Of a stretch of 7,222 bases of DNA, positions 195 to 1,099 are shown piece by piece. The stretch is taken from IMG/VR virus record IMGVR_UViG_2698536559_000008, positions 1-7,222 of that record, one strand, 5' to 3'. The notes below the pieces were generated by a model. It made no database searches, was not told where the DNA came from, and saw nothing but the letters and a program-made list of their open reading frames with translations. Position 1 is the stretch's first letter. Each line of letters starts with the position of its first letter. This DNA is from a virus. Its lineage: Duplodnaviria > Heunggongvirae > Uroviricota > Caudoviricetes. Both the position numbers and the translations under genes were made by a program.

Positions 195-448
195 ATTGAT
201 AACAGAGGGCGTTGTAGCGGGGTTGTCACTTAAGCGTATGGTCAACCTGACAACCCGGTGCATTTTCTGGAGCAATGGAGGAAACCCCAGCCATACTTAC
301 CGCCGCGCCATTTCGCGGACTGCCACAACCGGAAGCGCACGGTCGACGAAAATTTAACGACAGGCTATCTATGAACCAGCTACCTCGCCGTACGCTTTCG
401 CGTTGTGTGCCTGCTTTTAACCACGTCAGGCGAGGTGGTTCCTGTTAT

Positions 449-498
449 TCCCCAACAACAAGAAATTTGTATAATCTGGATATCCCCAACAACGAGAA
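449..498 (+). promoter_or_regulatory. Candidate promoter: consensus -10 TATAAT (470-475) bracketed by two 16-bp direct repeats TCCCCAACAAC[A/G]AGAA (449-464, 483-498)
   Basis: Seen directly: perfect TATAAT hexamer preceded by TG; two 15/16-identical direct repeats 34 bp apart flanking it; about 145 bp upstream of the 620-964 ORF. No good -35 identified. Confidence 0.3.
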
Positions 499-619
499 GA
501 GTATGTAACGTGATAGTTGAGTTCTCAGCAGCAATGTCGGCAATCAAAGAAACTGCGGTAATGGCAAAGGGTATTCTGAATGCAAAACTCAAACTGAGAT
601 AAATTCCGCTGTCAGCGAT

Positions 620-964
620 ATGCTTTCAAAACTTACGTCTGTTCAGTTTGAATGCGTATCGCTCATTGAGATGGTGCGCTCTTATCAGGAAGAAGCCGCA
701 TCTCTCAAAGCAAAAATTGCAGAGATAGAAGACTTTCAGCAACAGGCGGAAGGTTACAAACTTAACAAGCTTGATTCTGGAACTCTTGTGTATTCCAAGA
801 AGCAATTTATAGGCGATACCGAGATAACAGTGCATCTTTGCCCACAATGTTTTGGAAAAAAGGTAATATCTGTACTGCAACCAATGGAAATAATGCGCTT
901 TGATGCTCATTTTCGTACTTTTTGCCCCGCTTGCAATAATAAGTTCTGGATGAACTCAAGATAA
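620..964 (+). CDS. Hypothetical 114-aa protein: predicted coiled-coil N-terminal half plus C-terminal C4 zinc ribbon (CPQC-x24-CPAC); unknown function
   Basis: Intact ORF, ATG at 620, TAA at 962-964. N-terminal region is charged/heptad-like (EEAASLKAKIAEIEDFQQQAEGYKL); C-terminus has two CxxC pairs. More AT-rich than flanks and opposite in strand to the surrounding dic operon. No clear Shine-Dalgarno, so the start is uncertain (alternative ATG at 671). Confidence 0.5.
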   Translation: MLSKLTSVQFECVSLIEMVRSYQEEAASLKAKIAEIEDFQQQAEGYKLNKLDSGTLVYSKKQFIGDTEITVHLCPQCFGKKVISVLQPMEIMRFDAHFRTFCPACNNKFWMNSR

Positions 965-1007
965 TTAACCGTTTAAATAAGTTGGGACTATCCAGATTTT
1001 TAAAGAA

Positions 1008-1039
1008 CGTGCCGGATGCTCACCCGTGTCCGGCGCACG
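1008..1039 (-). terminator. Candidate hairpin between convergent genes (stem CGTGCCGGA / TCCGGCGCACG, 12-nt loop)
   Basis: Inverted repeat seen in sequence. On the minus strand the stem is followed by TTCTTTAAAAATC, a weak U-rich tract. No T-run on the plus strand after the stem, so it looks minus-oriented (after ydfC). Confidence 0.3.
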
Positions 1040-1099
1040 CACTCCACCTGACCCGTAGAGAACTCCTTAATTACCAACCTTATCCTCGTTGGTTAGCTA

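Follow-up and report, generated by a model that had tools for sequence, protein, structure and literature searches.

The closest described relatives of the gene considered here belong to the Rip1 ("ring interacting pore 1") family of phage defense proteins, whose mechanism (Patel et al., Nature 651:1060, 2026) is summarized in a review (PMC13434031), and the account is corroborated by two further sources (PMC12908700; 10.64898/2026.04.30.721860). According to this review, Rip1 by itself is non-toxic, and phages escape from it through mutations in the portal for phages of Pseudomonas and in the small terminase for those of E. coli. Cryo-EM revealed an 11-mer small-terminase ring surrounded by 12 Rip1 monomers, the ring being contacted by the C-terminal half of Rip1 and the N-terminal part forming an amphipathic helix (PMC13434031). 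The complex forms a pore, which lets dye out of liposomes and punctures cells, with premature lysis as the consequence. The same review describes Rip1 homologs as widespread in proteobacterial prophages, and places the Pseudomonas gene between those for the small and the large terminase (PMC13434031).

Several members of this family carry other names. The Rip1 protein of solved structure is gp37 of phage HK446 (YP_007111990; PDB 9OOX, with the T6 small terminase). Gene 30 of phage JBD30 (gp30, AFQ21944) is listed as encoding a 164-aa moron that gives phage resistance (PMC11445458, Appendix Table S1), and together with its D3112, DMS3 and MP38 orthologs it forms a set of Pseudomonas Mu-like phage morons. 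HkaP of phages HK620, HK629 and HK630 also has 164 aa, and the hkaP gene of HK620 is annotated as 'putative superinfection exclusion protein', its locus being mentioned in the literature as an insertion site. The genomic placement of these genes follows a recognizable pattern. HK446 gp37 and HK620 hkaP are found in the pL operon, between N and cIII/kil and on the opposite strand, the hkaP gene being bordered by N/hkaQ on one side and cIII on the other. In E. coli O157:H7, CPS-53-like and e14-like prophages, the copies have the repressor gene on one side and the early-left genes on the other. JBD30 gene 30 is an opposite-strand single gene of the late region, embedded in a lytic operon, its neighbors being gp29, which belongs to the DUF1804 family, and gp31, the gene for the large terminase. 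All members examined are single genes opposite a lytic operon, an arrangement from which we infer that expression takes place while the prophage is repressed and would be opposed by convergent transcription when the prophage's own lytic operon fires. At the equivalent map position, phages lambda and P22 carry sieB, a prophage-expressed exclusion or abortive-infection gene whose product is an integral membrane protein. Pfam and PHROGs gave no match that would relate the open reading frame (ORF) studied here to SieB.

The locus analyzed here is part of a 7,222-nt stretch of Caudoviricetes DNA (IMG/VR record IMGVR_UViG_2698536559_000008, positions 1 to 7,222), hereafter called the window. With good confidence, we regard the segment between DicF and ydfC as containing a cargo cassette of the moron type, lodged in the early-left (dicB) operon of a Qin-locus prophage and carrying a Rip1-family gene on the opposite strand with its own presumed upstream control region. 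Members of the Rip1 family are thereby located within the dicB/DicF operon of prophages of the Qin type.

Locus and borders of the cassette

The prophage of the window adjoins rspAB, which is the chromosomal position of Qin in K-12, and K-12 is therefore the right comparator. The features of the locus are collected in Table 1. In the window, 906 nt (194-1099) separate ydfC from DicF. The corresponding K-12 Qin gap measures 340 bp (ydfC end 1649041, dicF start 1649382), and not the roughly 100 bp given in a preliminary description of this DNA, which had taken the interval for an insertion of about 0.9 kb. The gap is indeed enlarged, but the alignment with K-12 leaves only about 590 bp of extra DNA (window ~420-1008), found in place of ~27 bp of unrelated K-12 sequence. 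The DNA between this segment and ydfC (1009-1099) is ordinary ydfC-dicF spacer, as in K-12, both in the pairwise and in the ten-locus alignment. Judged from these alignments, the extra DNA appears to be a mosaic replacement rather than a clean insertion flanked by target duplications. A repeat search restricted to pairs no more than 120 nt from each other, a distance too short to link the two junctions, found no border repeats.

Neither K-12 Qin nor the majority of dic-type prophages have the cassette, and among 5426 complete E. coli genomes only 60 contain at least 80% of window 405-1008. This bears out the proposal of the preliminary description that a cargo gene lies opposite the dicB operon at a variable site; the possibility it had raised against itself, that all dic-type prophages carry an equivalent gene here, does not correspond to what is found. 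Two further ORFs lie on the same strand. The 77-aa ORF annotated by NCBI is probably spurious. An ORF at 405-602, for which Pfam, PHROGs, NCBIfam and PADLOC gave no family match, was considered as a separate gene and rejected, as it is the out-of-frame N-terminal part of the rip1-like gene, extended upstream.

Table 1. Coordinates (window numbering) of the features in and around the ydfC-DicF interval.
Feature	Position	Strand	Basis and remarks
DicF sRNA	142-193	-	Rfam RF00039, 77 bits vs gathering score 48, full-length model match
Ordinary ydfC-dicF spacer (DicF precursor region)	194-419	-	Near-identical to K-12 Qin in alignments
77-aa ORF annotated by NCBI	275-508	+	No match in Pfam, PHROGs, NCBIfam, PADLOC
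Inverted repeat/long hairpin over left junction	382-436 (arms 382-394, 424-436)		Repeat search and fold
Cargo cassette	420-1008	+	Absent from K-12 Qin; K-12 pairwise and multi-locus alignment
Direct repeats TCCCCAACAAC(A/G)AGAA, 16 nt	449-464, 483-498	+	Repeat search; flank TATAAT 470-475
rip1-like gene, disrupted (intact form 151 aa)	510-964	+	Compared with L004 and L005, two loci with an intact copy
N-terminal fragment, 30 codons from GTG 510	510-602	+	Out of frame after codon 25; stop TAA 600-602
114-aa ATG ORF	620-964	+	Residues 38-151 of the native protein
GC-rich 11-bp hairpin	1009-1036		Fold; common to K-12; 45 nt after the stop codon
ydfC	1100-1318	-	ORF list; RefSeq annotation; PHROG 1744 E=1e-39

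Assignment to the Rip1 family

We are highly confident that the gene of the window belongs to the Rip1 family. Homology to HK446 Rip1 extends over essentially the whole length of the protein: a profile of 70 homologs matched PDB 9OOX_L (E=9.2e-18, with positions 5-152 of the 159 in the profile aligned), the repaired or intact ortholog alone matched 9OOX Rip1 with E=2.8e-7, and the 114-aa ORF as it stands in the window matched it in phmmer with E=4.9e-6 (Rip1 residues 49-155 of 164). In the AlphaFold model of a near-identical intact homolog (pLDDT 74.9), helices are followed by a beta-rich domain, and an AF2 model was also obtained for the 114-aa ORF (pLDDT 93.8). For both models the sole significant PDB match in Foldseek was 9OOX (E ~1e-6, probability 1.00, TM 0.70-0.72, with 0.72 for the 114-aa ORF against 9oox_M), the next-best match having an E of at least 0.2. 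The window ORF, its intact orthologs, HK620 HkaP (28.7% identity) and JBD30 gp30 are all held by PHROG 1244, and gp30 was in addition linked to the window family by tblastn (E=3e-9, ~26% identity). An exhaustive profile search retrieved 2561 clusters (50% identity) at E <=1e-3, nearly all of them 145-180 aa long and matching end to end. The family is common in E. coli, where about 1 in 7 genomes has a nucleotide-level relative, as estimated from even-step ranking.

The likeness to HK446 Rip1 includes the predicted fold, consisting of a long N-terminal helical part and a beta-rich C-terminal domain with CxxC...CxxC, the size class (151-171 aa in the window family vs 164 aa), and the position of the gene, which is a single, prophage-borne, separately oriented moron-like unit opposite the early-left operon, flanked on one side by the repressor or N region and on the other by that of kil/cIII/dicB. 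The CPQC...CPAC motif already remarked upon in the preliminary description corresponds to CPQC at 839-850 and CPAC at 923-934 (Cys codons 839-841, 848-850, 923-925 and 932-934), and these four Cys are invariant across 90 aligned homologs. Differently from HK446 Rip1, the window subfamily has its own conserved N-terminus (MIAELSAAMxAIKET), its gene belongs to a prophage of the DicA/DicB type (Qin locus), where ydfC and DicF are its neighbors, and the copy in the window is frameshifted and has no residues 1-37, thus not representing a complete protein of ~150-170 aa with the conserved N-terminal segment. JBD30 gene 30 is intact whereas the window copy is frameshifted, and it belongs to a late region whereas the window gene is situated in an early-left operon. 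Identity to the solved HK446 Rip1 is ~22-29%, and therefore target specificity, and conceivably mechanism, may differ.

Searches of Pfam, NCBIfam and PADLOC with the 114-aa ORF produced no family-level match, but only sub-threshold ones to zinc-ribbon, K-box and SLATT models, and PADLOC (2023), which has no model of the Rip1 family, made no call for the window gene. A SLATT pore-forming effector was considered and rejected: SLATT_5 scored 17.4 bits in Pfam vs a cut-off of 29.5 and E=0.073 in NCBIfam, RTasSLATT of PADLOC gave E=0.005, and there is no strongly hydrophobic segment. Two homologs bear a JGI label, 'Predicted nuclease with TOPRIM domain', which has no domain or fold support and was treated as a mis-transfer. 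The preliminary description had thought of an uncharacterised family, a view that is superseded by the 9OOX matches and by the earlier listing of JBD30 gp30 as a phage-resistance moron (PMC11445458).

By homology, intact members of the window type would be expected to act as Rip1 does. Their C-terminal half would bind a ring-shaped late phage protein (small terminase or portal), twelve monomers would assemble around the ring, and the N-terminal amphipathic helical part would give rise to a membrane pore, so that the infected cell would be permeabilized before progeny mature, which amounts to abortive infection. Mean hydrophobicity does not exceed 0.40 in any 18-residue window, from which no transmembrane segment is predicted, and a hydrophobic-moment scan of the N-terminal helices gave a muH of at most 0.39.

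Two other readings of the family deserve consideration. One is that it acts by classical superinfection exclusion, blocking DNA injection, and not by late pore-forming abortive infection; we judge this to be improbable, even though the gene occupies the sieB position of lambda and P22 and the note on HK620 hkaP speaks of superinfection exclusion. For JBD30 gp30, PMC11445458 also has the entry 'blocks phage genome injection (Tsao et al. 2018)'. However, the cryo-EM complex with the small terminase ring (9OOX) points to a late, cytoplasmic trigger, as do the portal and small terminase escape mutations and the liposome leakage reported in the review (PMC13434031), and the lack of a predicted transmembrane segment argues in the same direction. 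The other reading, which sees in the ORF a DksA/TraR-like or other novel coiled-coil zinc-finger regulator, or else a functionless ORF, can hardly be correct. A coiled coil followed by a four-Cys motif is indeed a layout common to DksA/TraR and the window protein, and weak sub-threshold zinc-ribbon Pfam matches exist, but the Cys spacing differs and the protein of the window ends in a beta-rich sensor domain. Pfam contained no zf-dskA_traR match at E up to 1, neither of the two PDB fold searches returned a DksA or TraR structure, and the homology to Rip1 is strong and specific; the doubt on DksA/TraR already expressed in the preliminary description was well placed. With 2561 full-length-matching clusters and a dN/dS below 0.5, the family does not represent a chance ORF.

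The frameshifted allele and its likely fate

The plus-strand 114-aa ORF around which the preliminary description was built is present in the ORF list, and its NCBI/RefSeq entry is WP_001399959.1, a hypothetical protein. Its product consists of a long helix followed by a C-terminal domain rich in beta structure, together with a motif resembling a C4 zinc ribbon. This ORF is nevertheless not the native gene but a frameshift remnant of one that encodes 151 aa and has its start at GTG 510, and neither ATG 620 nor ATG 671, the two starts that had been proposed, is the family start. Intact orthologs at EC21GDE043 and ETEC4073, whose loci are 96% and 89% identical, encode 151 aa from a GTG equivalent to that at 510. 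Compared with these intact loci, one C is missing in the window between 583 and 584 (GCC AAA -> GC- AAA), and its re-insertion in silico restored the orthologous protein exactly except for one residue. The 114-aa ORF begins at the internal Met38 of the native frame. Consistently, it matches PHROG 1244 (E=3.5e-38) over profile positions 39-147 of 157, vs E=2.5e-48 for the intact form.

The distribution of the two alleles was surveyed with a 60-nt probe across the frameshift site, which matched 29 genomes. The deleted allele was found exactly in 16 of them (O103:H2, O45:H2 and O121, as well as strains 377323_2f and EC12) and with a single substitution in one, and the intact allele in 12. In this survey, the frameshift allele is fixed in the O103/O45/O121 STEC genomes.

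The family N-terminus MIAELSAAMxAIKET includes invariant and near-invariant positions, and its conserved 'AAMxAIKET' falls in the lost part. Across codons 2-37, pN/pS is 0.22-0.44, with synonymous change near saturation, and whole-gene dN/dS ranges from 0.14 to 0.45 across the family, which indicates purifying selection, a sign of conservation that the preliminary description had asked for. Given both the constrained N-terminus and the whole-gene dN/dS, selection acts on the full-length frame, a constrained part of which is gone from the window copy. The 1-bp deletion splits the gene, leaving in the 114-aa ORF the long helix and the sensor domain without the 37 N-terminal residues. Since these strongly constrained residues are missing, and since there is no recognizable ribosome-binding site (no Shine-Dalgarno sequence precedes ATG 620), the window copy is likely inactive. 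In our estimation a recent 1-bp deletion probably inactivated it, and the most likely overall reading is that of a recently inactivated defense gene, handed down clonally in STEC of the O103/O45/O121 type and in a small number of further strains. Persistence of the unchanged allele in at least 16 genomes is compatible with recent clonal descent and constitutes no proof of decay.

It is unlikely, though not to the same degree as the alternatives discussed above for the family, that the frameshifted allele is still functional. In that reading, reinitiation would yield the 114-aa fragment, acting by itself or jointly with the 30-aa N-peptide, or else an infrequent -1 slip of the ribosome on GCA-AAA-C would regenerate the full-length protein. 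Reinitiation is conceivable, as the stop codon of the N-terminal fragment (600-602) lies only 17 nt upstream of ATG 620; against it stands the absence of a Shine-Dalgarno sequence at that ATG. A -1 tRNA-Lys slip on A-AAA at 584-587 would yield ...NAKTQTEINS..., identical to the intact protein, but the four-A run is a weak slippery site and has no obvious stimulatory structure. The model of the fragment is confident (pLDDT 93.8), and of the 164 residues of each 9OOX chain 124-126 are modelled. The alignment of the 114-aa ORF spans 111 columns, covering 111 of the ~125 resolved residues, and therefore the truncated product, if made, would keep most of the resolved ring-binding architecture and might still bind its target. 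Weighing against its function as a whole is the strong purifying selection in the family on the 37 residues that have been lost, and the identity of the allele in 16 genomes, which might be read as a sign of maintenance, fits recent clonal spread. Recent inactivation thus remains the reading that we prefer.

With respect to the preliminary description, which had made the ORF its lead candidate for an undescribed working function, the ORF as then read is a poor candidate, being a frameshift remnant. The presumed uncharacterised coiled-coil/zinc-ribbon gene was a false lead: it belongs to a known defense family, the mechanism of which was published in 2026, and this copy is broken. The frameshift is hidden from annotation-based surveys because the truncated ORF passes in RefSeq for an ordinary hypothetical protein.

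The upstream module and its variable cargo

The hairpins reported to flank the gene are present at 378-440 and 1009-1036. The left one, in its plus-strand fold, has an energy of -25.2 kcal/mol (z = -3.2). That at 1009-1036 is without a U-tract and may be a terminator or a processing element for either strand, and the terminator scan called no intrinsic terminator after the ORF. The TATAAT with flanking direct repeats, from which a promoter had been deduced, is found at 470-475, but a scan for sigma-70 consensus promoters did not call it because there is no acceptable -35. The ten-locus alignment shows conservation of the TCCCCAACAAC repeats ahead of several cargo genes of different kinds, but no conservation of the TATAAT. 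The region 449-498 is presumed to be a promoter or regulatory region.

The upstream module (window ~400-505, ~100 nt) occurs at >=80% coverage in 1375 of 5426 E. coli genomes (25%). In the sampled loci, at least six unrelated cargo genes follow it in the same position and orientation. Besides the Rip1 family, these include the ECs1072 family/phrog_5286 (loci L014 and L018), phrog_7681 (L019), phrog_34441 (L020), phrog_6315/23697 (L021) and a 106-aa hydrophobic ORF (L015), and in one locus (L013) an IS3 insertion lies behind the module. We tentatively propose that the module, consisting of the inverted repeat and of the two TCCCCAACAAC repeats around a variable -10, could serve as the shared control of a swappable early-left defense slot in lambdoid prophages, that the other cargos could be undescribed anti-phage or exclusion genes, and that their antisense placement could silence them on induction. 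The cargo slot is the most useful by-product of this analysis, as it points to several small uncharacterised genes worth testing for phage defense.

Variation is also seen within the Rip1-like proteins, which are mosaic at a conserved LKAKIAE linker. Between the window and ETEC4073, the N-terminal part is 48% and the C-terminal part 97% identical, while between the window and P0005 the corresponding values are 98% and 55%. This pattern suggests that the effector and sensor halves of Rip1-like proteins may be exchanged independently.

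The module and the cargo slot

A conserved module of about 100 nt (window 400-505) lies upstream of the cargo; its repeats are listed in the table. A screen of 5426 E. coli genomes found the module, at a coverage of at least 80%, in 1375. Behind this module, in different sampled prophages (loci L013-L015 and L017-L021), one slot holds, in one orientation, small cargo genes of at least six kinds that are unrelated to each other, namely members of the Rip1 family, of the ECs1072 family/phrog_5286, of phrog_7681, phrog_34441 and phrog_6315, and a hydrophobic ORF of 106 aa.

Features of the window and of the identical RefSeq genome locus (L001)
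Feature	Position	Strand	Remark
Hypothetical protein WP_071529670.1, 77 aa	275-508	+	RefSeq annotation, one identical genome
Upstream module, inverted repeat	arms 382-394 / 424-436		
Upstream module, direct repeats			two TCCCCAACAAC copies either side of variable -10
GNRA-tetraloop hairpin ACGCGAAAGCGT	392-403	-	dicB-operon sense, upstream of DicF
ydfB-like ORF (…MDFDTIMEKAYEEYFEDLAEGEEALSFSEFKQALSS)	1366-1518	-	between ydfA and ydfC
DUF1627 gene, frameshifted fimbrial gene, paa, IS150 element, in this order	5492-6943; L001 11492-12944		past the replication genes
paa, AcfC-family adhesin gene	6185-6943		

Composition of the rip1-like gene

When the rip1-like gene of the window (510-964) is compared with its counterparts in L005 (ETEC4073) and in the homologue P0005, a mosaic break is seen at the conserved LKAKIAE linker, at about residue 66. 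The N- and C-terminal halves encoded by the window gene are 48% and 97% identical to those of L005, and 98% and 55% identical to those of P0005; one and the same N-terminal half is paired with differing C-terminal (sensor) halves, and the converse pairing is also seen. Synonymous divergence between the window and ETEC4073 falls from 0.92 to 0.17 along the gene.

The helical N-terminal half of the intact orthologue (L004 3506-3961, residues ~19-85) repeatedly gave weak matches to models of SLATT pore-forming effectors, all of them sub-threshold (Pfam SLATT_5, 17.4 bits; NCBIfam SLATT_5, E=0.07; PADLOC RTasSLATT, E=0.005). These matches may reflect either coiled-coil noise or a distant relationship.

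The frameshift site of the window gene reads GCA-AAA-C (582-590). Judging from the bases themselves, were tRNA-Lys to slip by -1 on the four-A run, the native reading (…NAKTQTEINS…) would be exactly regenerated, a possibility that is probably of no significance.

The DicF-precursor spacer

The DicF-precursor spacer, a conserved region, contains the annotated 77-aa ORF in antisense. No family in four libraries matches this ORF, which is likely a spurious call. The GNRA-tetraloop hairpin is kept in K-12, and may be part of the processing structure of the DicF precursor.

Remnant end and ydf genes

The window prophage is a remnant, and no late or terminase genes follow the replication genes and the stretch from the DUF1627 gene to the IS150 element, in the window or in L001. 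The ydfB-like ORF carries no annotation in the identical RefSeq genome, and ydfB is annotated in related loci. The ydfC gene, intact in the window, is annotated as frameshifted by one extra base in the reference genome of O103:H2 str. 12009 (L003 4100-4319), a further sign that the lineage of the window's prophage is decaying.
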